Shown: positions 7,767 to 29,235 of the stretch, piece by piece
Numbering within the stretch: position 1 is the first letter of the stretch
Layout: every line of letters begins with the position of its first letter
Assembly: GCA_964567185.1 (NCBI GenBank)
Contig: CAZMKZ010000005.1
Coordinates: 1 to 58,976 of the forward strand
Length of the DNA stretch: 58,976 nucleotides
Direction of reading: 5' to 3'
From: an uncultured Thermodesulfobacteriota bacterium
Lineage (GTDB): Bacteria > Desulfobacterota > GWC2-55-46 > JADFVP01
The notes under the pieces: model-generated
Told to the model about the DNA's origin: nothing
Databases searched by the model: none
The model's input: only the letters and a program-made list of their open reading frames with translations
Translations under genes and position numbers: made by a program

Positions 7767-8189
7767 TCAGCCGGCCTTTATCATGGCTATGGATTTCTCC
7801 ACGCTCCGGCCGCCGAAGTAGAAGATGATTACCGTCTGCATAATGGATTTATGCACCTCGGTAAGGGGTATCTGCGGATATCCCAGATACGGGGCGAGTA
7901 TGGTCCAGCTGAATATGGCCAGCATGATAAAAGACCACAATGGGCGATGGGTCACCTTCAGGACGTTGGCCCATGGGGGCGCGCCCTCGCCCTCTCTGGC
8001 GGCAAGGGCACGGGCGTTCTGGGTGTCGGCAGTTGCGGCCTTGCTCTCTTCAATAGCCAGTTCCTCAGCCTTGAGCCTGAACTCGGCCTTCTCCTGCTCG
8101 CTCATGGAGGCGGGCAGATACCTGTCCGCGAGTTTACCCACAACCTTGCCAACCGTTGATTCTATGAGGTCTCCTATTAGAGGTGTCAT
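7767..8189 (-). CDS. Holin-like protein (3TM holin/DUF3154-like)
   Basis: MTPLIGDLI..KLADRYLP..EKAEF..RP(L)W..TM..FYFGGRSVEK. GGAGG RBS before ATG 8189. Confidence 0.75.
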   Translation of the reverse strand: MTPLIGDLIESTVGKVVGKLADRYLPASMSEQEKAEFRLKAEELAIEESKAATADTQNARALAAREGEGAPPWANVLKVTHRPLWSFIMLAIFSWTILAPYLGYPQIPLTEVHKSIMQTVIIFYFGGRSVEKSIAMIKAG

Positions 8190-8190
8190 A

Positions 8191-8334
8191 TCATTCTCCT
8201 CCTGATTCTCCTTTATGGTCTTTGAATGCAGGGCTTGGCTTACCCCCGCACGGGGTGCATTTTTCACAGAGGCAGGTCTTTAGATATATCCATGCCAGCC
8301 TGCCGCACTCAATACAGAGACCTCTCTTTTTCAC
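8191..8334 (-). CDS. 47-aa Cys-rich putative zinc-finger protein
   Basis: GTG at 8334 after GGAGGAG, overlapping the upstream stop (GTGA). MKKRGLCIECGRLAWIYLKTCLCEKC... Confidence 0.55.
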   Translation of the reverse strand: MKKRGLCIECGRLAWIYLKTCLCEKCTPCGGKPSPAFKDHKGESGGE

Positions 8335-8465
8335 AGCTCCTCCCTTAACTTCTTCGCCCACTGCGAGAACCTCCTGTAATACACTACCGTACCCACGAGG
8401 GAAAAAACTCCACCAAGTACAAGGGCCTCTATTACGTGAGCTCCTGTGTAACACTCCATGTTCAT
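8331..8465 (-). CDS. 44-aa single-TM peptide (not in ORF track)
   Basis: AGGAGG RBS and ATGA overlap with the endolysin stop. MNMECYTGAHVIEALVLGGVFSLVGTVVYYRRFSQWAKKLREEL. Confidence 0.6.
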   Translation of the reverse strand: MNMECYTGAHVIEALVLGGVFSLVGTVVYYRRFSQWAKKLREEL

Positions 8466-8908
8466 TTACCTCCTTCTTCGTATGATGAGAGCGGATGCCC
8501 GTCTCCAGCCGTCCGGTAGAGGGCAACGGACCTGTTTATCCATCCCCTGAGATATGATTTTCGTCCTAGGACGCGTGCGTAATAATCAATCCGCTCGATT
8601 ATGTAATCCTGCCAGTAATGCGTACGGGAGAGAAACTCCTTTGCCCTGCCCACGCCCATGTTGACGGCCGTATCAAAGACCACCATATTAAGAGGCCAGA
8701 GCAGGTCGCCGCACCCGGCCCGGTCCCAGTAATTGTTCCTGTATATATCCATTGCCTCTCCCTTTGTAAGGTCCTTTATGTCAAGCATGGGGTAGGCCCG
8801 CCGGGAAATGCCCCAGTGGGTCTCGCCTCCGGGGTCTTTAGGGTCAAAAACATACCCGCCCTCCCAGCGGAATACAAACTCCATGGCGCGGTCAAAGTCC
8901 TTCATCAA
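8462..8908 (-). CDS. Endolysin, glycosyl hydrolase family 108
   Basis: EGGYVFDPKDPGGETHWGIS motif, YW, FDTAVNMG, RGWINR. Confidence 0.92.
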   Translation of the reverse strand: MMKDFDRAMEFVFRWEGGYVFDPKDPGGETHWGISRRAYPMLDIKDLTKGEAMDIYRNNYWDRAGCGDLLWPLNMVVFDTAVNMGVGRAKEFLSRTHYWQDYIIERIDYYARVLGRKSYLRGWINRSVALYRTAGDGHPLSSYEEGGK

Positions 8909-9179
8909 GGGCCTCCATCTTAGTGGCTATCCTTGTGATGGTATTGTTCATCTGCCGGATATCCCGGCTGTTTTCCGAGAGGGTCTGCTTTATCTCGCTT
9001 AAGATGCCTGTGTTGTTATTACGGAATATGGCGCACTCCGGCTTCGGCACGCCATGGCACTCAAGCCTTTCCATCCTCTGCCCGAATGCCCGCAGAACAT
9101 AAGAGAGCATGGCGGACCAGAGCGCCAGGAGTCCCCCGCTCACGGCCATCCATAAATTCACGTCTTTCTCCGGGCTCAT
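8892..9179 (-). CDS. Single-TM coiled-coil protein (holin/antiholin-like)
   Basis: N-terminal TM helix, C-terminal heptads, directly upstream of the endolysin. Confidence 0.6.
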   Translation of the reverse strand: MSPEKDVNLWMAVSGGLLALWSAMLSYVLRAFGQRMERLECHGVPKPECAIFRNNNTGILSEIKQTLSENSRDIRQMNNTITRIATKMEALDEGL

Positions 9180-9194
9180 AGCGCCCTCCTTTAA

Positions 9195-9785
9195 TTAGTC
9201 CAGGTTGACAACGGACTGAAAATTATAGTCGGCGTATGCCCTGAAGTTCTTTACATAGACCTTGTCATCCGTGCCGTTGCATACATAATAGAGCTGAATA
9301 AGGTCGCCGGGCGCGAGCCCGCCCAGTGTCTCGGTATAGGTCTGGTACAGGGCTGTAAAGCTCCGCACCGTTCCATAGGGTATGGAGTTCTTGTATATCC
9401 TCGCACCCACCGAGGTTGGGGCCCCGGCGAAGATGGAGACCATGCCGTCAAAACTTATCTTCAGGGTTCCGCCTCGGCCAATCTTGAACTCCTTTACCTT
9501 TGTCCATGTCCCGTTGACGTCACCGGACTTCCACTGTTCCGTATCGGCGGCAAGGACCAGGTCCGTTGCCCCTCCGGTGGTGGTATATGACCCCGTGGCG
9601 CCGGGAAGGGCGCTGTTTATGCCATCGTGGTTATGGTCCTGAGCGGCAGTATAGTTGAGCCCCAGCCATTCTCTGAGGTGAACAAGATCGTCCCTTATCT
9701 CCGTAAGGAGCGTAGTATCGAGGGGACTGTCCGCGTCGATAGCCGAGTCCGGGATATCCGTCCAGTTCTTGGTTGGCGTTGTCAT
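9195..9785 (-). CDS. Tail fibre/receptor-binding protein
   Basis: N-terminal anchor-like DSPL..L..IRDDL, HNHDG motif, beta-rich C-terminus; position after tail tip genes. Confidence 0.6.
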   Translation of the reverse strand: MTTPTKNWTDIPDSAIDADSPLDTTLLTEIRDDLVHLREWLGLNYTAAQDHNHDGINSALPGATGSYTTTGGATDLVLAADTEQWKSGDVNGTWTKVKEFKIGRGGTLKISFDGMVSIFAGAPTSVGARIYKNSIPYGTVRSFTALYQTYTETLGGLAPGDLIQLYYVCNGTDDKVYVKNFRAYADYNFQSVVNLD

Positions 9786-9797
9786 TCAGAAACCTCC

Positions 9798-11522
9798 TTA
9801 CCAGATTATGTATCCGTCTTCTGTGCCGCCATTGACCTTGTTGGCGCTGTCTCCTATGTATGCCCGCTCTCTCTGCGATGGAGTGGCCGCGGGATAATCG
9901 GGCTGGCCCGGGGGAGCCACAAAGCCATAGCGGCGGTATAGCTTCGTCTCTACGGCCTCAACCCTTACTCTGTGGCTACTCATGTCGGGCCTTACCCTCG
10001 TTATCATCACCCGCTCCCCATTCCATGTGGGGCTACCGTGCTCAAAGGCCTCATCCGTTGTAATGTCCTTGAAATCAGCGGGTTTTATGAAACTCGAGTT
10101 ATAGACCATATTATTGATGTCCATCTCAAAACTTATAGTGGAAACAGGGTCGCGGTAGCGGTTCAATATCTTCTGCGCCAGCTGAGTTGCCATGCTGAGA
10201 CCGTTAAGGGTGGCTATCGTTATCGTATCGCTTTTGCCCTGGGTGGGCAGACTCCCGTAATCCACCACAAGCTTTACCCACTTGCTCCCGTTAGAGGAAT
10301 AAAGCGTGTATCTGCCGGAAGAGGAGAGACTCACCGCCCCTCCCGCCGCCTCGCCGGGAGGGGCCCACTGCAACGTATGACTGCCGTTGGCTGAAGGGGT
10401 AAAGGTGAGCGCCCCGGCGCCGGGGCCGTTGTTCTTAGAAAGGTGATATAGAGTAGCCCCTGTTATGTTCACGGGCTGAGTGTGCGTTAAGGACCTTATC
10501 CATTTACTCTTTATCGTCTTCGTGGATATCTCGTTCCACTGTGACGGGTCCTGTGACGCGGCGTCCGCCGCGATGACGGCGCTCTCGAAGTTATCCGTGC
10601 TCTCGCCGGAGCCCTTATAGTCGAAATAAACTACCACGCGGTTGAAAAACTTGTCCCTGTACCCCGAGTCCTGGGCAAGTGTATTTTCTATAATATGCGT
10701 GCCCTCGGACCACTGCTCAACCACTGTGCCCGGCGGGGGCGGAGAAAAGACCTTGAAGTTTACACGGAGCCCGTCATGCACGATAAATGAGTTCGTCTCT
10801 ATCTGAAGCTCGTTGAGTATCTTGTTGGCCTCCACGGGCTCCGTAAGTACCCGGCTGAAAGACCACCCGTTAAGCCATAGAGATGACTCACTGTCGAAAC
10901 TGAGAGTATCGATAGTGGACATATCCATGCCCAGTTTATTTATAAGGAGGTCTTTCATTATCTCCACGGGATTTCGGTTCGTGTAATCAAGCCACTGTGT
11001 GCCGTCCGGGTTGCTCACCGGTATCTGAAGACTCCCAACATCGGCAAGGGTATCGGCTATGGTCAGGGTAAGCTCATCGCCCTTTCTGCTCCAGTCTGAG
11101 ATTACACCTGAAAAAGTAGGGGCATAATCGCCGTATGTAAAGTCAGGGGCGATAAAGCCGTCTTTTCTTATCACCGGCGTGTTCTTGAGGAACTCGTCGC
11201 TTATGATGGACCTGAAGTTCTCCCTCCCCGATATTACGGCCTTGAGCTCGCCCCTTGTGGCAAAACCCTTCGAGGGGTCTATCCTGTTCTGAAGGGACGA
11301 TACGGATTTAAGTACCGGATCGATAAAATGCAGGGTATCCGAGCCCACGGCAAATATATCCGCGTCGGCGCGATATGAGGCATCGGCGCGGTAATGGACA
11401 ACATTCGGCCTGTTGCCGTGGAGGCCCAGATAACGGGTCCCTCCTTTAAGCCCCAACTCGAGTACAATGTCAGGCCTGTTCTCGCTCTTATTAAGTTCAT
11501 CAAGGAATCTTTGTCTTACCAT
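9798..11522 (-). CDS. Tail tip/hub protein
   Basis: 574 aa, beta-rich, NPVEIMKDLL, position downstream of tape measure/Dit. Confidence 0.6.
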   Translation of the reverse strand: MVRQRFLDELNKSENRPDIVLELGLKGGTRYLGLHGNRPNVVHYRADASYRADADIFAVGSDTLHFIDPVLKSVSSLQNRIDPSKGFATRGELKAVISGRENFRSIISDEFLKNTPVIRKDGFIAPDFTYGDYAPTFSGVISDWSRKGDELTLTIADTLADVGSLQIPVSNPDGTQWLDYTNRNPVEIMKDLLINKLGMDMSTIDTLSFDSESSLWLNGWSFSRVLTEPVEANKILNELQIETNSFIVHDGLRVNFKVFSPPPPGTVVEQWSEGTHIIENTLAQDSGYRDKFFNRVVVYFDYKGSGESTDNFESAVIAADAASQDPSQWNEISTKTIKSKWIRSLTHTQPVNITGATLYHLSKNNGPGAGALTFTPSANGSHTLQWAPPGEAAGGAVSLSSSGRYTLYSSNGSKWVKLVVDYGSLPTQGKSDTITIATLNGLSMATQLAQKILNRYRDPVSTISFEMDINNMVYNSSFIKPADFKDITTDEAFEHGSPTWNGERVMITRVRPDMSSHRVRVEAVETKLYRRYGFVAPPGQPDYPAATPSQRERAYIGDSANKVNGGTEDGYIIW

Positions 11523-11541
11523 CTTCGCCCCCGGCTACTTA

Positions 11542-13215
11542 TCAAACGCTCCCAACTATACAGGCCCATTGAGTGCCCTGAAATACACAGTCCAGAAAAT
11601 CGCCTGCCTTTCCCGTAAAGTTAACGCCGCCGTTGCCCTTCAGGGCGCTCCCGGCAAACTGGATGGTAGTGTTTGTATCGGCGAACCTTATGTGTATCCG
11701 CTGACCGATGTAACCATCGTTAAACATGGTAATGGTGGTGGGCTGTGTGTTGGCCGACTGAAAAAACTCGCCGCCAAGCACAGAGGGGGTGGCGCCCGCA
11801 GGCAGCGTCCTGAAAAGGTTTTTTTCTATATTGTCCTTAACGCGAAGGTTTGTGATGTTGGGCGCGTTAACAATGTATATGGATTCCGTTGTCACCTTCT
11901 CAAGGTCATTGCCCCTTATTTCTATATTGCTCATGGCCACGTTGGTTGCGTTCAGATAAACGCCGTATCTTGTCTTGAGCCCCTCGTCAAAGACCGTATT
12001 ATTGAGGACCCGGAGCCTGGACCATGTGGCCGATGGGGTTCCGCCCGGACCGATATATATACCGGCGCCGGCATTACTGTTACTCTGATTGGGGTTATAT
12101 ATTATGTTGTTGGCTATAATGGTATCCTTCCTGTTGGCGCCAAGGTCCCCGGCTATGACAATGCCGTGCGTGGCGGCCCTGGATACAAAATTGCCGGTAA
12201 CTATGCACTGGCTCGTGGCGTCTATGCCGAACCCCCCGGCAAGGGTAACCACGTTGTTGCTGATGATAATGGACTGAAAGAACGGGTCCGAGGGGATGCT
12301 CGCGCCCACGGCTATGCCGTCATCGCCGGCGCGGCTGTTGTCATGGCAGATATTGCCGTCTACAATAATGTATTGGCTTCCCCTGCCGAGTATAATCATC
12401 ATGTCTTTTTCCACCTGACCAGTTAGTATCGTGCTAGGCGCGATAGACCTGTTGATGATGTTTCCGGATATGAGCACCCCGCGGCTCGAATGGACGCCCA
12501 CAGTTGTACCCTCGACAAGGGCTATGCCCTGGCTTCCCGTAGAGAATATTTCATTGCCTGTTATAATCCCCGTATCACCATACTCAACCTGAATTCCCCT
12601 CCATCCTATATTTCTTAAAAAATTTCCGGTTATCCGAAGATTGGTGTGGGGCGCCGTAGTCGCCGTGAGCAGGATAGCGTTGAATGGAGTATTCCTTATG
12701 ACCACCCCCTGTATCGTAAGGTGGTCCGTGTTCACCCCTCCTATGCCGTTGTATGTAGAGGTTGTGTTATTATCGGCGTTACCATCAATCTGAAGGTCCC
12801 TGATGGTCAGGAAGGTTACAGTAGCGGCGATATTGAAGATGGAGCCATAACCGCCTGCCTGCAGGTCTCCCGTATTATCCTTGACCTTTATTACAGATAA
12901 TGACCCTTCACCCCGCACTACCATATTATGTTTATTGAGATTAATGGGGGCGGTGATAATATATGTGCCCGCCGGAAAATAAACAGTCCGTATGCCGCCT
13001 GAAGCGGGAACGGCGTCAAAGGCGGCCTGTACGGCAGCCGTGTCGTCCGTAACCCCGTCACCTGTGGCTCCAAAATCCGGGTGCGTCACATCCAGCCATT
13101 TATGGGCGCCGTTAATGCCATGTTCCGAAAGCATAAGCCTGTTAAGGGTGTCCGCCTTGGCGGGATGCCCGGCCCCAACCATCTCGTCCATATACTGAAT
13201 CCTGAGATCTGCCAT
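11542..13215 (-). CDS. Tailspike-like right-handed beta-helix (pectate-lyase superfamily) protein
   Basis: DFGATGDGVTDDTAAVQAAFD..VYFPAGTY and repeated I-x-G-N-x-I beta-helix turns. Confidence 0.85.
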   Translation of the reverse strand: MADLRIQYMDEMVGAGHPAKADTLNRLMLSEHGINGAHKWLDVTHPDFGATGDGVTDDTAAVQAAFDAVPASGGIRTVYFPAGTYIITAPINLNKHNMVVRGEGSLSVIKVKDNTGDLQAGGYGSIFNIAATVTFLTIRDLQIDGNADNNTTSTYNGIGGVNTDHLTIQGVVIRNTPFNAILLTATTAPHTNLRITGNFLRNIGWRGIQVEYGDTGIITGNEIFSTGSQGIALVEGTTVGVHSSRGVLISGNIINRSIAPSTILTGQVEKDMMIILGRGSQYIIVDGNICHDNSRAGDDGIAVGASIPSDPFFQSIIISNNVVTLAGGFGIDATSQCIVTGNFVSRAATHGIVIAGDLGANRKDTIIANNIIYNPNQSNSNAGAGIYIGPGGTPSATWSRLRVLNNTVFDEGLKTRYGVYLNATNVAMSNIEIRGNDLEKVTTESIYIVNAPNITNLRVKDNIEKNLFRTLPAGATPSVLGGEFFQSANTQPTTITMFNDGYIGQRIHIRFADTNTTIQFAGSALKGNGGVNFTGKAGDFLDCVFQGTQWACIVGSV

Positions 13216-13218
13216 TGT

Positions 13219-14922
13219 TTATTCCTTTCTCCCCTTGAGTTTTATGTTTATATCCCTGAAAAGGCCGCCCTTTTTAAGCGGATTGGAGAACCTCTTGTCA
13301 GGGAACATGAGAAAGATATCGTCGGGGTTATTGCCGCGCTCCCATGCCAAAAAAAAGTTTTTAAGTCCTGATGACTCCCACCAGCCCCGCACCTTTTCAT
13401 AAAGTGCGGTATCCGCCTCGCGAAAGGCAAGTGATATGGAGCGCTCAGTGTATTTTGTATGCACGCCCATGATATGACCGGAGTTGCTTATATTGACATT
13501 GGCCTGAACAGACTCGCCGTAGGGGTCAAAAGAGGTGGCAGCGTAATCGAGCACGGTCTTGGAGCCCCATATGCATATTTTCATGTAAGGCGCGCTGCTG
13601 TGACCGGTCATCTTCAGGCGCCAGTGCCTCTTACTTATTGCCCCGGGGGTGACGTAATCAGATAGCTCACCTGCCTGAACCGATGTTGAGACCCTCATTA
13701 CGGCCCCGTCAAGATAGACATTGGCCGCCGCTCCCGTTGATATGTAACACCTTAATTTCAAGGCCTTAAGTCCGCTCCGCAGGGGACGTGTCACGGTCAT
13801 GAACTGCCACGACCCGTCGCCGGGGTGCACGGCGCTCTCGGTAAACTGCACACCAGCGCCATCGTCATCGTAGATCCTCAGGGTTACCCTGCCCGGCGCG
13901 GAGGTATTCACATAACAGCCAAAGGAGATGGTCTTGCCGGATAGATTTGCAAGATCATAGGGGTTGCCCGTCTCTCCTGCCTCTACCCAGGCGTCCTCAT
14001 TGACAGCGCTACCGAGCCTCGCGCTGTAGACCCCCTTGAAGACCGTTACGGCCTCTCTGGCCATGGCCGCTGAGGGACCCCCTCCGATGGCCCAACCTGT
14101 GGGCGGGGCGGCAGGCCCATTGTCCCAGACCTCGAAATCAGGGTTTGCAAGGAGGCGCGCCTCGGCCACTACGGCGCGGTTCGAGAGCGGACGTATGGTT
14201 ACGAGGCCCCGAATATCTCCTGTAAAATCATCATCCGATGCCTCTAATGTAAGGGTCCCTCCTGAGCCGTGGTAATCATGACCCATAAAGGCAAGATAAT
14301 CGGCGCTCTTTCTCATGCCCCCGCTTGCCGCGTCAAAGAGAACCGTGCCGTCGGCGCCAAGGACCTGCAGGCGGATGCTCAAATCCGTAGCCCCTTCTGA
14401 TACCAGATGAGATACACTCAGGAACTCCCAGCCCCCTGCGCCGCTATGGTATGGTGAATAGGACCACTTAATGCCGTCGAAGATGGCAAGCCTCGCCTGT
14501 GATACGTTTGCCGATGATACCCATGCCCCGAGGCTGAAGGTCTTACCTGTAAAATCCCTGAAAGAAAGGACACTCTGCATAAGATGGCAGTCAGTCCCGG
14601 CACGGGTGAGGCTCGCCGAGGTAAGCCCTTTTTTCATGGTAACGGTATCCGCTGTCACCGATGCGCCGGACCCGCCTGAAAGGGACCAGTAATCAGGCAA
14701 GCCATTGGTCCAGGACTCAAAATCGCTATTAAGGAGCAGATTCCCGCTCCAGGTAATATACTGAGGGTCCGCCGTATTACCGGACTCCCACCTGTTTACC
14801 TCAAGCATGTTGTATATATTCGCCACATCCGTACCGGTAAGCGTGCTGTCCGCGGTAAGTGCGGTGCCCGGTTCGCCGAGCATGGTATCGTAAAAAAATT
14901 TAATCTTTTCCCAGGTTGCCAT
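13219..14922 (-). CDS. Distal tail (Dit)-like protein with two carbohydrate-binding-like domains
   Basis: Immediately after tape measure. Repeated domains NLLLNSDFESW../LLANPDFEVW.., GKTFSLGAWV/GKTISFGCYV, HSGAGGWEFL/HPGDGSWQFM. Confidence 0.65.
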   Translation of the reverse strand: MATWEKIKFFYDTMLGEPGTALTADSTLTGTDVANIYNMLEVNRWESGNTADPQYITWSGNLLLNSDFESWTNGLPDYWSLSGGSGASVTADTVTMKKGLTSASLTRAGTDCHLMQSVLSFRDFTGKTFSLGAWVSSANVSQARLAIFDGIKWSYSPYHSGAGGWEFLSVSHLVSEGATDLSIRLQVLGADGTVLFDAASGGMRKSADYLAFMGHDYHGSGGTLTLEASDDDFTGDIRGLVTIRPLSNRAVVAEARLLANPDFEVWDNGPAAPPTGWAIGGGPSAAMAREAVTVFKGVYSARLGSAVNEDAWVEAGETGNPYDLANLSGKTISFGCYVNTSAPGRVTLRIYDDDGAGVQFTESAVHPGDGSWQFMTVTRPLRSGLKALKLRCYISTGAAANVYLDGAVMRVSTSVQAGELSDYVTPGAISKRHWRLKMTGHSSAPYMKICIWGSKTVLDYAATSFDPYGESVQANVNISNSGHIMGVHTKYTERSISLAFREADTALYEKVRGWWESSGLKNFFLAWERGNNPDDIFLMFPDKRFSNPLKKGGLFRDINIKLKGRKE

Positions 14923-14924
14923 TA

Positions 14925-21457: not shown

Positions 21458-21460
21458 GGC

Positions 21461-22343: not shown

Positions 22344-22818
22344 TTACCACCTCTTTTGATTTTTTGTAGGCCTCGATTACCTTTTTATTGAGCCTCGCCT
22401 CCGGGACAAGCCCCTTTGCCTTTACCTTTCCAAGGCCGAGGTGCTCTCTTACCTCTGCCCCCATAAGCTCTTCGGAAATGGGTTCCGCGGGGTCAAGAAA
22501 AGCCCCTCCCGGAAAGTTTATCCCGGCGTCCCTGAGTCCCTGATGAGCCCTCAGGCTAACTTCCATACGCCGCAGAAGCTCCGTGGAAACGGGTTTCAAG
22601 GGGACCCATTTATCCCGCCAGTATCTAAGGGCGGCCTCCTTTAAATCCGTTACCCTTACGGTCTGAATAAGGCGAACGCCGCCGTTATATTCCGTAAACT
22701 GTCTGTTCCACATCCAGAAATCTCGCAGTAGCTCGCCCTGCCACGCTATGCCTCCCCTTACATCCGAGGCGAGAGAATAAAAACCCTTTTTCATTGGTCT
22801 TGCGCTATTAGCGGCCAT
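22324..22818 (-). CDS. Phage hypothetical protein
   Basis: ATG 22818 after the capsid hairpin; 164 aa. Confidence 0.6.
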   Translation of the reverse strand: MAANSARPMKKGFYSLASDVRGGIAWQGELLRDFWMWNRQFTEYNGGVRLIQTVRVTDLKEAALRYWRDKWVPLKPVSTELLRRMEVSLRAHQGLRDAGINFPGGAFLDPAEPISEELMGAEVREHLGLGKVKAKGLVPEARLNKKVIEAYKKSKEVVNGNVVP

Positions 22819-22838
22819 CTCTTTATCCCCCGTAAATG

Positions 22839-22869
22839 TGTGGGAGGGGCTTTTGGCCCCTCGCCACAT
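22839..22869 (-). terminator. Stem-loop downstream of capsid gene
   Basis: TGTGGCGAGGGGC-CAAAA-GCCCCTCCCACA. Confidence 0.55.
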
Positions 22870-23821: not shown

Positions 23822-24499
23822 TTACCTCCCGGTGGAGCCAAAACGCCTCTTCCTCGCATCGAGGAATGGGTTCTTGACATCCCTGAACCTGTAAACCTGC
23901 CCGGCGGAGCCATGTACGTTGATACCCTCGCGGAGATACCTGTCCAGGTCTTCACGTGGCATGGACTTCCATGAGGAGGGGTCGCCGAGACTGCGGGTAC
24001 GGCCATTGCCATGGTCGAATCCGGCACCATGGGAGCCAGCGCCGCTGCCGCCGGCGGACCTCAGGTGATGTGGCCTGTCGCTTAGCCACTGGGAGAGAAA
24101 GTCGTCCATTCCAACAGGATATCCCGCGTCATTTATCTTCGCGGAACCCGATGAATTGACAACGATGACATGGCCCTCGTCGTCCATTCTTACCCTGTCC
24201 TCAAGGAGCTTGACAATCTCCTCGCCGTCTACGACGTTGTACTTTGAGACGGCCTTGAGGAGGGCCAGCTTCTTCTTCTCCTCCTTCAGTCCCTCTATCT
24301 CACGGCGGAGCCCCTCAACATCCTCACCCGATGAACGTGTCCTCTGGGCCTTGGCAAAGGCCTTTCTGTAGGAATCGTCTATGAGCTCCTGAACCCTTGC
24401 CTGCTGCTCGCTGTTAAAGACGACCCTGCCTGAAGCGTTCTCCGAACCGTTGTCATAGCTCTCACCTTTTTCCGGCGTCTTTATCTCACTGCTCTGCAT
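23822..24499 (-). CDS. Capsid scaffolding protein
   Basis: AGGAGG RBS before ATG 24499; coiled coil, RPHHL..GGSGAGS linker; sits between portal and capsid. Confidence 0.75.
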   Translation of the reverse strand: MQSSEIKTPEKGESYDNGSENASGRVVFNSEQQARVQELIDDSYRKAFAKAQRTRSSGEDVEGLRREIEGLKEEKKKLALLKAVSKYNVVDGEEIVKLLEDRVRMDDEGHVIVVNSSGSAKINDAGYPVGMDDFLSQWLSDRPHHLRSAGGSGAGSHGAGFDHGNGRTRSLGDPSSWKSMPREDLDRYLREGINVHGSAGQVYRFRDVKNPFLDARKRRFGSTGR

Positions 24500-24619
24500 A
24501 CTGAATCCTCCTGTGATTTGTCCCCCGTTACAGCGCCCCTTGCAATTGATAAGGGATAACCCTCTTCTGAAAAAGGACGCCTGCCGCGCCACGGGGTATG
24601 AAACACGGCACCTGCCAAC

Positions 24620-24892
24620 TCACAGCAACGTCTTCGTTGCCCCGCTCAAAAAATCAAGCGTCTTTTTCTTGTCCATTAACGCCCTGACGACGCGCTGGCA
24701 AACATGGGACTTATCGGTAAAAGATAGTTTTCGCCAGTCCTCTTTGTCAACGGACGCCAGTATGGCCCTTCGGGCCTCTTCCCAGATACTCCTGGTAATT
24801 CCGTATGCCTGCGGGAGTTCAATCCCGTAGCAACCTGAAAGCCTCTTTGCCGTGCTCAAGGCATCTATATCAGGGTAGCTGTCTTTTTTCAT
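24620..24892 (-). CDS. Hypothetical protein
   Basis: GGAGG RBS before ATG 24892; 90 aa. Confidence 0.55.
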   Translation of the reverse strand: MKKDSYPDIDALSTAKRLSGCYGIELPQAYGITRSIWEEARRAILASVDKEDWRKLSFTDKSHVCQRVVRALMDKKKTLDFLSGATKTLL

Positions 24893-24941
24893 ACCACTTC
24901 CTCCCGTCTCAACGAGGCTCTCCCGGTTCTTCATGGACCCC

Positions 24942-26294
24942 TTACACCCCCCCATCTATCTCTCCCATTATCCTGCTCTTGAGGGCCTCATCCGCCTTGG
25001 GCAGGATTGTAGAGGCTATCTTTTTCTGCAATTCTTTTTTGAAGGTAACTGAATCCACTACCGCGGACTGCGCCTTAATGGCGTTGTCAAGGTCCCTTGC
25101 CATGTCTTTAACCGAAAAGTCATCGGGGTAGTCGATAAGCCCCTCGAAGCGGCCCCCCGACCATCTTGCCCAGAGGTCAAGCACAGAGGACTCGGCCTGC
25201 TCGATGTTATCGGCCTTCTCGCTCAAGGTTGCGTATAACTGCTGATACTCAAGCTCAATGGCCACACCGGACCTCATACGCGAAAAGTCCTCCGCTGTCT
25301 TCACGCCCCCGAGCTTGGCTATCCTGTGTATCTCGCCGATGTCTTGCCTTACCCACTCGCGTATCTCCGTAAGAGATGAGTGCGGGGGTTCAAGCCAGTA
25401 TGGTTTGGCGTTGGGTTCGGTTGGGTCGTACTGAAGTATGTTCCTCGGGCCTATCTCCCTATCTTCCTCACCGCCGGCCTTGCCGTATGGCATGGCCAGC
25501 ATGGGAAAGGCCGTGTTCTCTATAATCTCCTTGGCGTCGCTGCAGAGGTAATATATGTTCTTGTTGATATCGGCTATGTCCTGAAGGTCTGAGCTTCCAA
25601 CCATCCTTATGCCGGACCTCTTGTTGTAGAGATTCACCACGGGCACCACGCCGAGGTTGTGCTCGCCAAACCCCCGCAGGCGGACGTCTCCGCTCTCTTT
25701 TTCAACCTCCCAGAGTTCCCAGAGTTCTCTTGTCCAGATGCGGTACCTCCCTTCCCCCTCCTTTATCTTTACCCTCTCCAGCACGGGTTTACCCGAAGGG
25801 AGCCTCGTAAAGGACCAGTCAAGCATATTCTCCGGGGTTATAAGGGTCACATAGGGGCGAATGTCATCGCCTATGGCCTCGGCCCGTGTCATGGCGTAGT
25901 TTTCCGGGCTATCCACCACAATGGATACCCTGCCGTAAACCGAGGCAAACCTCTGGGCGTCGCGCATGAACTGGGCGAAGTTGGAGCCCTCGTGGTCCGC
26001 GTCGCGCAAAAAAGAATTAAAGAGCGGGTCAGTGGCAAGGCTACCGTAGTCCCTTCTCGCGCTCCTTCTGAACAGATGGGATACGAATATATCCACGATG
26101 GGGCCGCAGTAATTGTAATAATAGGCAATCTCCTTGCGGCGCCTGTAATTTGCGGCGCTCTCAAAGGGATGCTGAAGGAGATAATCGGCCTTCTTGTAGA
26201 GGATGCCTCCAAGATAAGACCTTATGTAGAATATCCATTCATTTACCCAGGCGTCGTAATGCGGATGTGTTTTCTCAAGCTCTTCTAAAGTCAT
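24942..26294 (-). CDS. Portal protein (SPP1/DUF4055-like)
   Basis: 450 aa; HPHY..W..YLGG..YL.HP.ES..YRRR..AYYYN, HNLGVVPVV, SGVA, YPDDF; follows terminase. Confidence 0.88.
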   Translation of the reverse strand: MTLEELEKTHPHYDAWVNEWIFYIRSYLGGILYKKADYLLQHPFESAANYRRRKEIAYYYNYCGPIVDIFVSHLFRRSARRDYGSLATDPLFNSFLRDADHEGSNFAQFMRDAQRFASVYGRVSIVVDSPENYAMTRAEAIGDDIRPYVTLITPENMLDWSFTRLPSGKPVLERVKIKEGEGRYRIWTRELWELWEVEKESGDVRLRGFGEHNLGVVPVVNLYNKRSGIRMVGSSDLQDIADINKNIYYLCSDAKEIIENTAFPMLAMPYGKAGGEEDREIGPRNILQYDPTEPNAKPYWLEPPHSSLTEIREWVRQDIGEIHRIAKLGGVKTAEDFSRMRSGVAIELEYQQLYATLSEKADNIEQAESSVLDLWARWSGGRFEGLIDYPDDFSVKDMARDLDNAIKAQSAVVDSVTFKKELQKKIASTILPKADEALKSRIMGEIDGGV

Positions 26295-26344: not shown

Positions 26345-27640
26345 TTACTTGTAAAACCTTCTCAAAGGGTCGAACCTCTTGCTTTGAAGAGGAAATTCAT
26401 ACTCGATAAAATACCCGAGGGCGTCTGTGGCATGAGTCCTCTCAGGGTTTGTCTTGTCTATATCCACACCGGAGCCGCTCCATACCACGCTCTCAAAATC
26501 TTTTTTCAGGTGCATGCACCGGGGATGATGAAAAAGACGGCACTCGTCCCTGGTATTTTCAAGCATGCTGTTTACGGCGTTCACCCTGTCTCTTACCGGC
26601 GGATTCCTGCGTTTAATCCTCTGCCTCGCAAGGCCAAGCTCGGAAAGAAGCACATAGTCCGTCTTACCCGTAGTACTGCGCGCCGAGCCCGCGGAGTCTC
26701 CATAGACAACTACCCCGGCCTCATGACGACCGTATCTTTTTAAAAACTCACGGCCCATCTCAACTGTATTGGTATTATGAAGGACTATCTCATCAAAGAC
26801 CCAAACCCTTCTGCCGTCCGTCTGCGCGAGGACCCATACGCAGGGGTCTACGTTAAAGTCACAGCAGACGATGATGGGCAGGTTTTCATCGCGCCTTATA
26901 CCGCTGTCCACGTGCCTCTGGGCGCGATATGCGTAATAGACCCGTTCCGTAGCGCCCTCGAAACTCGCCTCATACTCCTGACGGAAGGTCTTCGGGTCCA
27001 GTATCCTTCTTGCGGACTCTATCTCACCGGTGGGCAGGATATCGCTGGAATTCCACCTGTAAAACCCCCAGTCCGGGTCCTGTCCGGAGCGCGCGTAATC
27101 GGCAAGGTCCTTAAAGTGATTAAACCCCTCCGGAACCCCTATGAACCAGCACCACCCCTGCCTGTCCGATAGCGCCGGCCTTACGTTTTCCGTCCATGCC
27201 GTTGCCTTCATATCGGCGTACTCATCAAGGACTCCACCGTCCCAGGCAATGCCCTCTATCCTCTGGGGCCTGTCAAGTCCAACGACCCAGAGCTCGCTTG
27301 AAAATCGCGTCTTAATGCACATATCGCTCTCGTAAACCTTGCCCACCCACTTCGACGGCACAAGGGCCTTGAGGTCCGCCCAGAATATCCTCTTTGCCTG
27401 GTCCCTTGTGGGGGCCGCGGCAAAGTACCGGGGCGGGCTCCATGTTTTTTTATCGGCAAGGGTCATGACAAGCCTTCTCTTGGCGAGTTCGGTTTTGCCG
27501 GAGCGTCTTCCGGCGGTGACCACGCAAAAGCGTTTATTCTCATTCCATAGCCGTATCTGTTCGCGATGGCGCCGTAAGGGATGCCATCTCCTCGATAATC
27601 TCCTGAGTATCACCGGTGTTGAACCCACCTTCGATGGCAT
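26345..27640 (-). CDS. Terminase large subunit
   Basis: Walker A AGRRSGKT, Walker B VLDE, FRQEYEASF, nuclease DFN..YGDSAG..HATDALGY. Start uncertain (27640 or 27679). Confidence 0.95.
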   Translation of the reverse strand: MPSKVGSTPVILRRLSRRWHPLRRHREQIRLWNENKRFCVVTAGRRSGKTELAKRRLVMTLADKKTWSPPRYFAAAPTRDQAKRIFWADLKALVPSKWVGKVYESDMCIKTRFSSELWVVGLDRPQRIEGIAWDGGVLDEYADMKATAWTENVRPALSDRQGWCWFIGVPEGFNHFKDLADYARSGQDPDWGFYRWNSSDILPTGEIESARRILDPKTFRQEYEASFEGATERVYYAYRAQRHVDSGIRRDENLPIIVCCDFNVDPCVWVLAQTDGRRVWVFDEIVLHNTNTVEMGREFLKRYGRHEAGVVVYGDSAGSARSTTGKTDYVLLSELGLARQRIKRRNPPVRDRVNAVNSMLENTRDECRLFHHPRCMHLKKDFESVVWSGSGVDIDKTNPERTHATDALGYFIEYEFPLQSKRFDPLRRFYK

Positions 27641-28022
27641 CAAGACCCCAGGCCTGTCTTTGCCCCTTGACCACGACACTTAATATGTCTCCCGCAAGCT
27701 TTACCACCTTCAGACGTGCAAGGCCCTCTTCAGGTTTTTGTTTTTTAAGACCACACTCCAACCTTTTACTCACCAGCGCCCAGAGCCTGCGGTGTTGCCC
27801 GGCAATCTCCTCCGCGTCCTCAAGGGGCTTCGAATCCTTCGGCCCCGGGGCCTCTTTAAGACTTTGGGAGTGCTTTTTGTCTCCCACTTTCCCGCCGCCT
27901 GCCGCCCTTTGCTCCACGGCCTCATGCTCAAGATCGAGTAGCAATTTGCGAACATCACCGGCCGCCAGTTCGCCTTTGGAAGGTGCCGCAGGGGAAATAA
28001 CTTCGCTTGCCTCTATCATCAC
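27540..28022 (-). CDS. Probable terminase small subunit
   Basis: Directly upstream of terL; helical core HRRLW...GQRQAWGLD. Confidence 0.65.
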   Translation of the reverse strand: MMIEASEVISPAAPSKGELAAGDVRKLLLDLEHEAVEQRAAGGGKVGDKKHSQSLKEAPGPKDSKPLEDAEEIAGQHRRLWALVSKRLECGLKKQKPEEGLARLKVVKLAGDILSVVVKGQRQAWGLDAIEGGFNTGDTQEIIEEMASLTAPSRTDTAME

Positions 28023-28024
28023 GC

Positions 28025-28210
28025 CTAAATCTCCTCAAGGCCGTCGTGGTCTGTGCATCTTCCAAGCGGATAGAGACTGATAAAGACCCTGCCGCACTCA
28101 AGACACCTCTCGGGCTCTCTCAGGAGGACCCTTTTGCGTCCAAACTGACGGTGTTTGAACCAATCAAGCCCGCCGGAACAATCAGTATCAAGACCGGAAA
28201 CGTCGCTCAT
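28025..28210 (-). CDS. Small putative zinc-finger protein
   Basis: GGAGG RBS; CLECGR...CTDH. Confidence 0.6.
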   Translation of the reverse strand: MSDVSGLDTDCSGGLDWFKHRQFGRKRVLLREPERCLECGRVFISLYPLGRCTDHDGLEEI

Positions 28211-28339
28211 AGATGTAACCTCCCGATGTATTTTTTACCGCGCATACACTATGGTGTTTTTTTTCTACCCCTTCCGCCCTATGGCCTTGTTTTATCAGTA
28301 CAAAGAGGGCAAAATTATTCTACCCCCTGAGCCCGAGAC

Positions 28340-28375
28340 AAAAAAAAGGCCGCCCGGGTTGATACCCGCGCGGCC
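28340..28375 (-). terminator. Intrinsic terminator separating regulator from structural operon
   Basis: GGCCGCGCGGG-TATCAA-CCCGGGCGGCC followed by U8. Confidence 0.8.
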
Positions 28376-28470
28376 TCGATGCGCCGTTATTCCTGACTGA
28401 GTTTTTAAATAAAATCAGGTCTTGAATACATCATCCATAAGATTCCGTTCTCATCTTCAGAAGAAAAAAA

Positions 28471-28740
28471 TTATTTATCTCTGTCCGAGGTCAACCAATA
28501 ATGGCCGTTATCTCTCTCGAAGACCATGTTCTTCTCAAAGATATGCTCCATGCCCGCTGAAAAGCCGTATATCCTGAACTCGTCGAGTATGTCTCCAAGT
28601 GACTGGTACTGCCTTATGGTCTTGTACTCGCTCCAGCTCACCACGGGTTTTGCCTCAGGGGTTGAAATAGATATCTTCCTTCGCCTTTTCCTGTGCCCTT
28701 GCAGTTGCGACTTTTTCTTCAGCCCTGTAGAGTACTTCAT
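28471..28740 (-). CDS. Hypothetical basic protein
   Basis: GGAGG RBS before ATG 28740; overlaps the upstream regulator gene by 86 nt. Confidence 0.45.
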   Translation of the reverse strand: MKYSTGLKKKSQLQGHRKRRRKISISTPEAKPVVSWSEYKTIRQYQSLGDILDEFRIYGFSAGMEHIFEKNMVFERDNGHYWLTSDRDK

Positions 28741-28936
28741 ATGCCCTCCCAAGTGAAATTCTGTGACTCTTCGCGATGACTCTCATATGCGTGCTCCAGT
28801 AATGATACTCCACAAAAACAGCCCGCTCCCTCGGGCTTAGATCAGAGAGGGGCCATAAAAGGTCGCGCAGGCCCGGACCCTCTCCATTAAGTTTTCCGTA
28901 GAAAATATCCGTATCTATCTTTATCTTACCTGCCAA
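28655..28936 (-). CDS. Sigma70 region-4-like HTH transcription regulator
   Basis: LSDLSPRERAVFVEYHY..MRVIAKSHRISLGRAYEVLYRAEEKV; TTG start. Confidence 0.75.
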   Translation of the reverse strand: MAGKIKIDTDIFYGKLNGEGPGLRDLLWPLSDLSPRERAVFVEYHYWSTHMRVIAKSHRISLGRAYEVLYRAEEKVATARAQEKAKEDIYFNP

Positions 28937-29206
28937 CTTTTATCTCTCGAAATGTGAGTCCCGAGGGGGGACTGGAAAAATGGTCAACAATATCCTTAAT
29001 GTGCATTGCCGGGGCATATGCAAGAGAAAAATCTCTATTTAATAAATTGTTGAGACGAAAAAACCGGAATGGACAGCGCGAATCGAAAGGGACACCAGGT
29101 CAAATTGCGATAATAGACTTTATTAGGCCTATCAGGCAATCATCACGTGTTAAGATAACCCTTCAGTACCTCTCAGGCACGTTATCTTTAACCTATCATG
29201 ATAAAA

Positions 29207-29235
29207 AGTATACACTATATTTATATTATTGTCAA
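29207..29235 (-). promoter_or_regulatory. Near-consensus sigma70 promoter heading the phage-like cluster
   Basis: TTGACA-17 nt-TATACT with TG immediately 5' of the -10. Confidence 0.8.

Follow-up and report, generated by a model that had tools for sequence, protein, structure and literature searches.

The window analysed here is the whole stretch of 58,976 nt of source DNA (contig CAZMKZ010000005.1, assembly GCA_964567185.1) from an uncultured Thermodesulfobacteriota bacterium (GTDB Desulfobacterota; GWC2-55-46; JADFVP01). On its minus strand, positions 7767-28936 carry 26 co-oriented ORFs, from a holin (7767-8267) to the first regulator (28655-28936), which together comprise a sigma-region-4-like regulator, terS/terL, portal, scaffold, capsid, connectors, tube, tape measure, fibres/spike, endolysin and holin. 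Phage-family matches in HMM scans support the portal, terminase, capsid, scaffold, tube, tape measure, spike and lysis genes. A sequence-only reading made earlier had claimed an intact virion cluster of about 28 co-oriented ORFs at 7767-29235, with unbroken frames, strong ribosome-binding sites, tight packing, and housekeeping genes (DUF2905-like/lpxC and ychF) abutting both ends. The intact cluster held, with the count and extent as given above, and so did the flanks (PF11146, PF03331 and PF06071), the frames and the packing: all 26 genes are intact and the intergenic gaps are mostly -17 to +73 nt, with two bigger ones of 260 and 470 nt. As for the ribosome-binding sites, a Shine-Dalgarno core is present at 16 of the 26 starts. 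An end at 29235 takes in, besides the cluster, the intergenic stretch with a promoter candidate and an ORF on the plus strand (28954-29265), for which an HMM scan gave no family match. The features, from upstream to downstream, are the following.

29369..30460, minus: ychF, upstream host flank (PF06071, 6.1e-39)
29207..29235, minus: sigma-70-like promoter candidate upstream of g26 (TTGACA-17-TATACT), solely an 11/12 consensus match
28655..28936, minus: g26, 93 aa, stand-alone sigma-70 region-4-like HTH protein, first gene of the cluster, candidate activator
28471..28740, minus: g25, about 89 aa, conserved basic protein, no assigned role
28025..28210, minus: g24, 61 aa, small conserved Cys-rich protein, no assigned role
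27540..28022, minus: g23, 160 aa, small terminase, N-terminal HTH lost in the window's genus
26345..27679, minus: g22, large terminase (phrog_2, 1e-37), true start probably near 27640
24942..26294, minus: g21, portal (phrog_145, 2.7e-74)
24620..24955, minus: g20, 111 aa, no assigned role, fast evolving
23822..24592, minus: g19, scaffolding protein (phrog_206, 1.3e-8)
22889..23752, minus: g18, major capsid protein, 287 aa (phrog_267, 3.6e-13)
22324..22869, minus: g17, 181 aa, head or connector protein of unassigned family, colinear orthologues 45-80% identical
19260..21853, minus: g16, g15 and g14, lineage-variable island; g16 is a Gp80-type fibre/head protein, g14 has 558 aa
17884..19263, minus: g13 (295 aa) and g12 (147 aa), head-tail connector candidates, each colinear in 20 loci
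16719..17810, minus: g11, tail tube protein (PF18906, 9.5e-11; phrog_290, 7.6e-16)
15895..16679, minus: g10 and g09, in the tail assembly chaperone position between tube and tape measure
14925..15905, minus: g08, short tape measure protein, 326 aa (phrog_9483, 1.5e-16; phrog_3336, 1.9e-16)
9195..14922, minus: g07 distal tail, g06 beta-helix depolymerase-like spike, g05 hub/fibre-like, g04 fibre
7767..9179, minus: lysis module g03-g01, namely g03 (95 aa, no assigned role), endolysin and holin
8462-8908, minus: GH108 endolysin (PF05838, 7.5e-27; phrog_315, 3e-37)
7767-8267, minus: holin (phrog_3427, 2.5e-6), probable start 8189
7491-7700, minus: DUF2905 gene, downstream host flank (PF11146, 5.8e-22)
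6436-7425, minus: lpxC, downstream host flank (PF03331, 8.3e-104)

The leading gene, g26, matches the sigma factor family phrog_1190 at 5.9e-4, and its alignment has 28 invariant columns. A profile of 24 orthologues, run against 1.84 billion proteins, found only 37 representative clusters; among the proteins so found, P0146 (36.7 bits) and P0157 (53.3 bits) pass Pfam Sigma70_r4_2 over the same stretch, as does an ECF sigma factor, P0155 (47.1 bits), which passes the same family. A fold search with g26 gave nothing significant. About 86 nt are shared, in different frames, by the end of g26 and the start of g25. Orthologues of g25 occur at 33 of 40 loci (39-92% identical) and have an invariant G-H-R-x-R-R motif; family and atlas searches returned no match for the protein. 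Orthologues of g24 are colinear across loci, and HMM scans assigned it to no family. The region upstream of g26 holds 4 promoter-like sites, as against 2.4 +/- 1.7 in shuffles.

The small terminase (TerS) was identified through its orthologues. Namely, four of these (L019, L033, L048 and L024) match the small-subunit family phrog_1206 via their first ~50 residues (3.4e-15 to 9.2e-9), and the window's g23 and the orthologue L014 give no match to it at E<=1. The C-terminal core of g23, a gene that overlaps the start of terL, is conserved among orthologues, and an HTH-like N-terminus, judged by motif and by eye, is kept in 31 of 43. Loss of this HTH is a published mark of the terminases of gene transfer agents (GTAs) (PMC6854486, PMC11841831). 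What is new here is that the TerS of the window's genus has shed the N-terminal DNA-binding part kept by most orthologues; by sequence, it fits the GTA-type small terminase criterion of Sherlock et al. 2019 (PMC6854486), in this genus only and with helical content outside the basis of the assignment. It follows that packaging initiation in this genus would be predicted to be unspecific, and that most of the order, retaining the HTH-like part, may still begin packaging at a specific site. The large terminase reaches Terminase_6C exactly at the cut-off (22.6 bits) and falls below it for Terminase_6N (19.7 vs 22); it is 63-86% identical in 39 loci, and dN/dS is 0.06-0.13 for terL and 0.05-0.10 for the portal. 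The capsid protein, which scores 25.1 bits against PF25209, under the cut-off of 27, is 69-97% identical and thus conserved above YchF, with dN/dS of 0.022-0.056. For g20, some of the loci have a colinear orthologue, 28-83% identical (dN/dS 0.13-0.36). The g16-g14 island, missing between g17 and g13 in distant genomes, likely encodes head fibres (g16: PF23140, 1.6e-44; phrog_240, 1.1e-30). The atlas neighbours of g13 are viral hypothetical proteins (0.98), and an SU10 adaptor comes up as a weak lead (0.84).

No tail sheath gene was found in the cluster by HMM scans, which also gave no family match for g10 and g09, whose orthologues are 54-80% and 40-71% identical, respectively. The g07-g04 block matches PF12708 (3e-16, beta-helix spike), PF13229 (1.2e-12), phrog_11439 (1.3e-15, in g05) and phrog_15641 (1.2e-8). 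It is a variable block: g06 identity is 63% within the genus, conservation of g04 is confined to the N-terminus, and in distant genomes g07, g06 and g04 are conserved only in parts. In other families of the order, the endolysin belongs to Peptidase_M15_4 instead of GH108, and we infer from these sequences that lysis function has been retained through non-orthologous replacement, by GH108 or M15.

Beyond ychF lie genes for H+-PPase, pth, L25 and prs, and the order prs-L25-pth-PPase-ychF-[cluster]-DUF2905-lpxC-phoH is identical in six long contigs (G000, G007, G021, G028, G038 and G053), with G028, a closed genome of 2.75 Mb, having the same ychF-[cluster]-lpxC locus. Among the 27 loci whose upstream sequence reaches 1.5 kb or more, ychF adjoins the cluster in 17, and the other 10 have different upstream neighbours. 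Among 9 genomes read on the downstream side, 8 retain the holin-lpxC junction (the six above, G483 and G487; not G484); in one lineage both flanks differ. G000 has homologues of every neighbour met in the alternative contexts. The two large neighbours that were scanned proved to be host proteins of ordinary kinds, one a GGDEF/EAL signalling protein and the other a TPR protein, rather than mobility genes. Loci with a different upstream side can still retain the holin-lpxC junction, and this is more in line with host rearrangement than with re-integration. The earlier claim that integrase, repressor, helicase/primase, tRNA target and att repeat are all absent also held. Namely, HMM scans matched no cluster ORF to integrase, repressor, helicase or primase families; the 3 PF00589 matches in the source genome are all on other contigs, with none on that of the cluster; there is no tRNA target at the cluster, the nearest tRNA being ~6 kb off (35285-35359); and a search for flanking direct repeats as att candidates returned only short imperfect matches. 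Two other identities were considered and rejected: a functional temperate prophage, there being no integrase, repressor or replication genes among the scanned ORFs and no flanking repeats, and an R- or F-type tailocin, whose tail-only gene set does not allow for the intact, conserved capsid, scaffold, portal and two terminase subunits seen here.

Of 77 genomes in the host's order, 57 carry the capsid gene (among those of high quality, about 39 of 50 by a count from a rounded table), and of 19 from sister orders of the class none does; no stops lie inside the listed capsid matches. The portal is found in 34 of 41 related genomes, with one match per genome, split into two pieces in G024. Portal identity falls from 80-92% inside the genus to 67-76% in the family and 63-71% in the order; among 390 genomes of the phylum from outside the order, only 4 gave a match (25-33% identical). 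All related public records are MAGs labelled uncultured Thermodesulfobacteriota or 'Deltaproteobacteria', bearing out the earlier claim of a probable deltaproteobacterial lineage. The lineage is uncultured, and the evidence base is sequence, without functional data. Cluster size across relatives is 14.5-23 kb. Some lineages carry relocated copies, and in some complete genomes the cluster is missing or broken: G022, G029 and G012 gave no cluster match, and G010 retains a deletion remnant with 2 stops in terL. IMG/VR lists several cluster copies as viral contigs. In addition, four of its contigs (L086-L089, portal 54-59%) take a basal position in the clade and one of these, L088, has ordinary phage packaging genes, so that a free phage relative may still exist.

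For 22 taxa, we compared a host tree (YchF, PPase and Prs) with a cluster tree (TerL, portal and capsid). The two have 13 of 19 splits in common, no conflict pits two splits of >=95 against each other, and their Mantel correlation of 0.81 was reached by 0 of 2000 permutations; one strong host split is absent from the cluster tree and is not rejected (AU p = 0.2). It should be noted that the host markers are linked to the cluster, the independent check being the taxonomy-graded portal identities. In the closest pair (G028/L041), dS is 0.13-0.29 for 11 cluster genes vs 0.26 for ychF, and across five pairs dN/dS is 0.02-0.28 for nearly all genes, with g23 and g20 higher. The frames are still intact where YchF identity is down to 64-70% across the order. 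The cluster matches the genome's genes in GC (0.545 vs 0.546) and GC3 (0.635 vs 0.653), and its synonymous codon usage distance of 1.67 compares with 1.64 +/- 0.46 for 175 host gene blocks; this is amelioration, and the host-like codon habits claimed earlier are thereby confirmed. Of the checks proposed with the sequence-only reading, the search of relatives recovered the same colinear cluster at ychF-lpxC, a locus that is not universal (10 of 27 without ychF), the tree comparison gave congruence, and dN/dS gave purifying selection. No split-off integrase or replication module turned up, given that the window, like five other long contigs (the closed genome among them), has housekeeping genes directly against the cluster on both sides.

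We interpret the cluster as a domesticated particle system and a candidate gene transfer agent of independent origin, with a probability of about 0.6, where particle production, packaged DNA and delivery are inferred. The parts of this reading are not equally firm. That the host maintains a functional particle cluster is very likely, although production of particles is itself an inference; that the cluster transfers host DNA is inferred from sequence and, in our judgement, only modestly favoured. The earlier claim of a domesticated DNA-packaging particle is in this sense supported, for domestication by distribution, trees and selection, and for DNA packaging by inference. As to origin, the late-gene half of a siphovirus-like phage (regulators, packaging, head, tail, fibres and lysis) would have become a fixed part of the chromosome in the ancestor of one uncultured Thermodesulfobacteriota order and been kept by vertical descent and purifying selection. 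A host signal would turn on the leading regulators, with g26 as the sigma-region-4-like HTH protein and g25 and g24 as further candidates; portal, scaffold and capsid would build procapsids, which TerS and TerL would fill headful-wise with chromosomal DNA. A short non-contractile tail would then be added, carrying a polysaccharide-degrading spike and variable fibres. As tails measure ~0.15 nm per tape-measure residue, its predicted length is ~50 nm. Finally, holin and endolysin would lyse the producer cell, and the particles would adsorb to related cells and deliver host DNA. If true, this would be a gene transfer agent of independent origin that a whole uncultured order of sulfate-reducer-like bacteria has inherited.

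The label 'gene transfer agent' refers to function and is defined by six criteria (Kogay et al. 2022, PMC9662315), three of which need experiments; what is shown here is shown from sequence alone. The criterion of full endogenisation is met, given the housekeeping flanks in six long contigs, no integrase on the contig, no att repeat and host-like composition, and so is that of vertical inheritance with co-diversification, given the graded identities, shared splits, Mantel and AU results and a dS equal to that of ychF. Origin of the particles from tailed-phage-derived proteins is met by gene families, an inference, as the particles are unseen. The criteria also include packaging of mostly random host DNA and delivery of the packaged DNA to other cells (PMC9662315); for random packaging, the TerS HTH loss in the genus is only indirect evidence that leaves it a possibility, the packaged DNA being unobserved. 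A further criterion is a head too small for the full cluster (PMC9662315). The nearest phages with like-sized capsid and scaffold have genomes of 29.8-32.5 kb, and therefore the head may hold more than the 14.5-23 kb cluster; such a head, inferred from phage genome sizes, would possibly go against this criterion.

A possible alternative is a PBSX-like killer particle, i.e. a defective prophage kept by the host, which packages host DNA without delivering it and acts as a bacteriocin against competing strains. PBSX of Bacillus subtilis is a chromosomal, species-wide, non-replicating head-tail-lysis cluster kept by its host; it uses a sigma-like positive regulator, has a contractile tail, packages 13 kb without delivering it, and also keeps its packaging genes. 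Such a killer would be expected to show the same gene content (heads, tails and lysis without integration or replication), its spike and fibre parts vary fast between lineages, as expected of weapons against changing surfaces, and a sigma-like regulator heads the cluster, as in PBSX. That said, strong purifying selection on terL and portal needs a reason, an argument tempered by the retention of packaging genes in PBSX, and a non-contractile tail with tape measure is the form that normally delivers DNA. The present data do not discriminate between killing and transfer.

Two further rivals appear very unlikely. An ordinary decaying prophage remnant without host function would explain the absence of integrase and replication genes, as well as the decay in some lineages, such as the G010 deletion with its terL stops. 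However, the 26 genes are intact here and the frames intact across the order despite the YchF divergence, the capsid is better conserved than YchF, dN/dS stays well under 1, and dS is the same as in the host. An active temperate phage family targeting the ychF-lpxC site, with integrase and replication encoded elsewhere or supplied by a helper, could account by movement for the 10 of 27 loci with other upstream neighbours and for the lineage with both flanks different, and would fit the copies listed in IMG/VR and the related phage-like contigs. Against it stand the single copy, identities graded by host taxonomy, congruent trees, a host-equal dS, host-like codon usage, the lack of att repeats, alternative neighbours with G000 homologues (the two large ones scanned not being mobility genes), and the holin-lpxC junction kept where the upstream side differs.

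The domesticated GTA candidate can be set beside known systems. With RcGTA (Rhodogtaviriformidae), it shares a head-tail(-lysis) cluster without integration or replication genes, vertical inheritance over a large clade with host co-divergence, a short non-contractile tail, and a sigma-like DNA-binding regulator leading expression (GafA in RcGTA, PMC9638019; putatively g26 here). It differs in having a scaffold in place of the prohead protease, lysis genes and fibres inside the cluster, a size of 21 kb, and a head that is probably not reduced; the RcGTA cluster spans about 15 kb. Scans of 10 core proteins of the cluster against NCBIfam gave no match at cut-off, only N4-gp56 capsid appearing at 22.6 vs 60 bits, and PF11351 (GTA_holin_3TM) scored 17.7 bits, below its cut-off of 24.8. 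An RcGTA-like cluster was thus rejected, core-gene homology being undetected by NCBIfam and Pfam profiles, and the earlier claim of a gene content unrelated to RcGTA is consistent with these results. The likeness to PBSX lies in a host-kept head-tail-lysis cluster with a sigma-like regulator, and the differences in tube and tape-measure genes without a sheath and in conservation that is order-wide rather than confined to a species group. The nearest isolated phages are Pelagibacter phages HTVC026P/111P/112P/202P and phage DSL-LC06 (portal 34-37% and capsid 34-36% identical over 93-99% of length), all with free genomes of 29.8-32.5 kb and with capsid and scaffold lengths about equal to those here. 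These phages share the late-gene order terL-portal-scaffold-capsid-...-tape measure-tail-fibres-endolysin, and the HTVC026P late region, at ~21 kb, equals the cluster in size; they differ in a ~9 kb early region (HTH regulator, DnaD and HNH) missing here, and the HTVC026P tape measure has 649 aa vs 326 aa. Finally, Dd1 is a GTA reported from the 'deltaproteobacterial' sulfate reducer Desulfovibrio desulfuricans (PMC9662315, PMC6854486, PMC11841831), which is its point of likeness to the present candidate.

On balance, we believe that the cluster is a host-maintained, particle-forming element of independent origin and most likely a gene transfer agent (GTA), a reading to which we would assign a probability of approximately 0.6, with the packaging and delivery of DNA being inferred. 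What the sequence-only reading had observed, namely a phage particle cluster between housekeeping flanks and without mobility or replication genes, held when the ORFs and flanks were scanned.

Layout of the cluster and its flanks
28936 to 7767, minus strand: the cluster, 26 co-oriented ORFs, from the putative regulator gene g26 to the holin gene
Upstream flank, housekeeping: ychF, H+-pyrophosphatase (PPase), pth, L25, prs
Downstream flank, housekeeping: DUF2905 gene, lpxC, phoH, ybeY

Profile searches identified among the cluster products a holin, a GH108 endolysin, portal, scaffold, major capsid protein, large terminase, tail tube protein, a tape measure of 326 aa and a Gp80-type fibre/head protein, as well as a spike with a right-handed beta-helix and a depolymerase C-terminal domain, and a fibre-like protein of 574 aa. 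Since tube and tape measure genes are present and a sheath gene is absent, the tail would be non-contractile. Intergenic gaps are mostly between -17 and +73 nt, and a Shine-Dalgarno core precedes 16 of the 26 starts. Integrase, repressor, helicase and primase families found no match among the ORFs in profile searches, and the three tyrosine-recombinase matches of the genome (G000; 2.1 Mb in 121 contigs, rated 100% complete) sit elsewhere, on contigs C38, C2 and C3, the window being the whole of contig C5. The claim that there is no tRNA target or att repeat held as well: the closest tRNA is 6 kb off, and no direct repeat bracketing the cluster was found. An Rfam scan returned five tRNAs only and no match inside the cluster; the tRNA-Thr/Gly/Tyr/Thr group at the contig start (82-1029) is ordinary and unrelated to the cluster. 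Two long non-coding stretches interrupt the otherwise tight layout, one at 28211-28470, between the genes of the small conserved proteins g25 and g24, and the other a 470-nt gap at 21854-22323, from the head/connector candidate g17 to g16, whose sole ORF (63 aa, 22152-22343) has no family match. It is conceivable that a late promoter or other control element sits in either of them.

In composition, the cluster is that of its host, as the claim of host-like codon habits had it: GC is 0.545 vs 0.546, GC3 0.635 vs 0.653, and the synonymous codon distance 1.67 vs 1.64 +/- 0.46 over 175 host gene blocks, 40% of which equal or exceed the cluster's value. An apparently unusual codon usage (L1 of 0.215 vs 0.123 +/- 0.026, amino-acid make-up included) disappears when synonymous choice alone is considered, and is therefore ascribed to protein composition. 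As for the assembly, Logan contigs from three DNA runs in two studies leave none of the 30 bins of 10000-29999 uncovered and run across the junction between cluster and ychF, keeping in mind that neither depth nor excision can be read from such contigs. The small joints seen in them have short sides of 18-38 letters and are likely strain variants or noise. At 18485-18489, inside the connector candidate gene g13, one base is inserted and one missing, four bases apart, in all three DNA runs; this amounts to a one-codon local frame change and could be due either to strain variation or to a minor error of assembly. No RNA run was listed as containing the window. In a metatranscriptome run (X5), small contigs of 140 and 211 letters match the distal tail gene g07 exactly (14352-14648), and a single 32-letter piece matches elsewhere on the window (21822-21853); the g07 matches might be transcript or carried-over DNA.

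The element is widespread within one order. A single strong portal match was found in 34 of 41 related genomes, in 22 of 25 genera and in all eight families sampled (the portal being split into two pieces in G024), with identities following kinship: 80-92% within the genus, 67-76% within the family and 63-71% within the order. The capsid was matched in 57 of 77 genomes of the order, at 69-97% identity and without an internal stop in any of them, in about 39 of the 50 high-quality ones (as counted from rounded quality figures), and in 0/19 genomes of other orders of the class. When the portal was sought in a phylum sample of 401 genomes, 9 of the 11 belonging to the order matched, as did 4 of the 390 outside it at 25-33% identity, leaving a gap between at least 63% within the order and at most 33% beyond. 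The 40 related loci found in the public genome set are without exception from MAGs of uncultured bacteria, under the titles Thermodesulfobacteriota, Deltaproteobacteria or 'bacterium', and samples that yielded the lineage come from groundwater, hydrothermal vents and microbial mats. In a large protein database, 388 clusters match the capsid at E<=1e-10; of the best 120, nearly all are 286-288 residues long, and the names given among them are 'hypothetical protein', 'phage major capsid protein' and once 'N4-gp56 family major capsid protein'; no description of the gene cluster was found in the literature searched in full text.

Gene order is colinear in 40/40 related loci, at cluster lengths from 14.5 to 23 kb. 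Comparing six long contigs end to end (from G000, G007, G021, the closed 2.75 Mb genome G028, G038 and G053), we found in all six the position between ychF and lpxC that the sequence-only reading had proposed to look for in relatives, the order being nuo genes, prs-L25-pth-PPase-ychF, the cluster, DUF2905-lpxC-phoH-ybeY, and beyond. That said, this locus is not universal: where the sequence reaches 1.5 kb or more beyond g26 (27 loci), ychF lies upstream of it in 17 and is absent there in 10. The latter represent at least three other neighbourhoods, in which all matched ORFs are homologous to genes on other contigs of G000; two large ORFs scanned there encode a GGDEF/EAL signalling protein and a TPR protein, and no mobility gene was found among the scanned ORFs. 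The holin-lpxC junction is retained in G483 and G487 despite a different upstream side, and in G484 both flanks are different, with lpxC-phoH on a separate contig. We read these altered neighbourhoods as host rearrangement at the cluster edges, plus one possible relocation. A remnant in G010 (L075, G010:C14, 7900-12200), still between ychF and lpxC, is a deletion which retains g26, g25, g24, the small terminase subunit (TerS) gene g23, a fragment of terL (g22) interrupted by two TAG stops, and the holin gene. In G022, ychF adjoins rpsR-rplI-dnaB-priA and the cluster is absent; terL found no match in G029 and G012, and in G026 it lies at a contig end. A further locus, L059 (G034:C1), carries a DEAD-box RNA helicase gene between g25 and g24 (13750-17070), and in the same interval a minus-strand ORF resembling phage-tail lysozyme (PF18013, 4.2e-10); its contig stops just past the portal, and a capsid gene was not found in G034.

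Trees of 22 genomes, built from YchF, PPase and Prs for the host and from TerL, portal and capsid for the cluster, are largely congruent. Namely, they have 13 of 19 splits in common, none of their disagreements pits two splits of support >=95 against each other, and their patristic distances correlate at r = 0.81 (0/2000 permutations as high). One strong host split is missing from the cluster tree, and the cluster data do not reject it (AU p = 0.2). A caveat for this comparison is that the three host markers lie next to the cluster and so lack full independence from it; the taxonomy-graded identities provide an independent check on co-divergence. In the closest pair (G028 and L041), dS is 0.13-0.29 for 11 cluster genes vs 0.26 for ychF, and cluster and host have therefore diverged over equal time. 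The dN/dS ratios, the other check that had been proposed together with the trees, are 0.02-0.28 for nearly all cluster genes across five pairs (0.022-0.056 for the capsid), values like those of the host genes on either side (0.03-0.20); higher ratios are confined to g23 (0.41-0.46) and g20, a gene of unknown function (0.13-0.36), and saturation of dS makes the ratios approximate for pairs further apart. In terms of median identity, the capsid is even more conserved than YchF (77% vs 70%).

Other parts of the particle vary. Spike and fibre parts differ between lineages, and the g14-g16 island (19260-21853), encoding proteins of 558 aa and 173 aa and the Gp80-type fibre protein, occurs only in the window's near relatives; in distant genomes g17 and g13 have no such island between them, and it is possibly a module for head fibres that was acquired or exchanged at a late stage. 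As endolysin, the window and some families have GH108 and others Peptidase_M15_4 (G028, G038, G484), the latter partnered by a 77-aa membrane protein in G028 and G038 and by a homologue of the window's holin in G484; the lysis function was thus maintained through replacement.

Lysis cassettes of other families
L054, 14523-15123
L057, 11949-12553
L112, 9094-10132

The packaging genes are of particular relevance to how such a particle would be filled. The g23 gene lies immediately upstream of terL and overlaps it, and its product has no family match of its own; all four orthologues tested match the phrog_1206 terminase small subunit over their first ~50 residues (3.4e-15 to 9.2e-9), and the window's g23 and its genus-mate L014 gave no match at E<=1. 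An N-terminal HTH-like part is carried by 31 of 43 TerS orthologues, degenerate in one (L018) and missing in 11, where the count of 31 is partly manual (24 by motif and 7 by eye) and HMM support for the HTH state extends to 4 HTH-bearing and 2 HTH-less proteins only. Those without it are the window's genus (5), L036/L039/L044, L032, L045 and L049. On the portal tree, the window's genus is one well-supported clade and L036/L039/L044 another, L032 groups with L045 in a different part, and L049 is on its own; this scatter suggests at least three losses, without a formal test. The C-terminal core is conserved in all, and the two halves of g23 are 32-45% (N-terminal) vs 65-92% (C-terminal) identical; with dS of the N-terminal half saturated in two of three genus pairs, we do not claim neutrality. 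According to a review, no known GTA has a putative TerS with the N-terminal DNA-binding part (PMC11841831).

Among isolated phages, the closest are DSL-LC06 (29.8 kb) and four phages of Pelagibacter (31.6-32.5 kb), whose portal and capsid are 34-37% and 34-36% identical to the window's. In one of the latter, HTVC026P, an early region of ~9 kb (HTH regulator, DnaD, HNH) is followed by a late region of ~21 kb with the same gene order as the cluster; its capsid and scaffold genes (858 and 705 nt) are close in length to the cluster's; the tape measure has twice the length. Judging from gene order and lengths, the cluster probably corresponds to a phage of this type minus its early third. Free phage relatives probably still exist, as phage-type features indicate: among 14 related IMG/VR contigs, eight are the same element as the cluster, L086-L089 (portal 54-59%) form a basal polytomy with L050, the most divergent MAG copy, and L090 and L092 fall outside, L090 with an ordinary TerS (phrog_309, 2.5e-38) and L088 with an HTH-type small-subunit candidate (by eye, not scanned) and a possibly fused terminase ORF. 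The latter (L088, portal 54% identical to the window's; 907-3279, 790 aa) resembles the nuclease part of the cluster's terL in its C-terminal third and another large-terminase type at its N-terminus, and could be a fused or chimeric terminase.

How does the GTA reading stand against its rivals? Of the six points of a published GTA definition (PMC9662315), three are met on sequence evidence: phage-derived proteins, an endogenised genome and vertical co-diversification. The point that the head be smaller than the cluster is perhaps not met. Namely, capsid and scaffold lengths near those of ~30 kb phages mean that the head may hold ~30 kb and so exceed the cluster, which, if so, would run against this criterion (PMC9662315); we infer that a cluster without packaging signal, excision or replication would gain no advantage even from a large head. 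Packaging of random host DNA and its delivery are likewise inferred, there being no particle data, and a PBSX-like killer particle remains possible as the main rival. By its gene content the cluster is neither a tailocin nor a working prophage, and NCBIfam and Pfam scans show no kinship with RcGTA, in keeping with the statement that the cluster is unrelated to it.

Beyond the GTA reading itself, a bolder and rather unlikely one is possible, in which one order preserves the steps from prophage to GTA. An ancestor would have lost integration and replication and retained a phage-type TerS with its HTH. In most lineages, packaging would thereafter begin at one fixed site of the chromosome, inside the cluster or close to it, and proceed in successive headfuls into the chromosome on the lpxC side, as a hard-wired lateral-transduction device. 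At least three lineages, the window's genus included, would later have lost the HTH independently and changed to packaging without specificity from the whole genome, as classical GTAs do.

Few GTAs of independent origin are known, and most were chance discoveries in cultured strains (PMC11841831). If true, our reading would add another, from sequence alone and in an uncultured lineage. The clade offers a comparison of TerS with and without the DNA-binding domain and of full clusters, relocated clusters and deletion remnants, making the question of how a phage becomes a host-owned transfer device directly testable. It also shows what to look for when such elements are sought in MAGs: an order-level, syntenic, host-like block of phage late genes without mobility genes.

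Finally, the regulatory end of the cluster deserves attention. The g26 product has 28 invariant columns in an alignment of 24 sequences, and its profile, run against 1.84 billion proteins, matched no more than 37 representative clusters; several of these exceed the Pfam Sigma70_r4_2 threshold over the matched stretch, one being an ECF sigma factor with region 2. By this transitive profile result, g26 is likely a stand-alone HTH of the sigma region-4 type. The inference rests on that result because the structural and PDB searches were not significant: for the AlphaFold model (mean pLDDT 73), Foldseek found nothing in the PDB at E<=0.001, the top rows being sigma region 4 chains at E 1.5-2.7, and profile comparison with PDB sequences reached WhiG region 4 at E 0.078. 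Sigma-factor-like DNA-binding domains are reported for GafA, the RcGTA activator (PMC9638019), a functional parallel by analogy, homology not being shown. Upstream of g26 there is a near-consensus sigma-70 promoter, as a sequence match only, and no repressor to restrain production is visible in the cluster. In the ESM Atlas, g25 returned nothing usable (best 0.83), and g13 returned viral hypothetical clusters only, plus a weak adaptor lead. At 28655-28740, the 3' end of g26 and the 5' end of g25 share the same DNA in two frames over ~28 codons each, both readings being conserved order-wide, and in 3 of 5 pairs the dS of the two genes is below that of their neighbours (e.g. 0.13-0.20 vs 0.26), as is expected for double coding.
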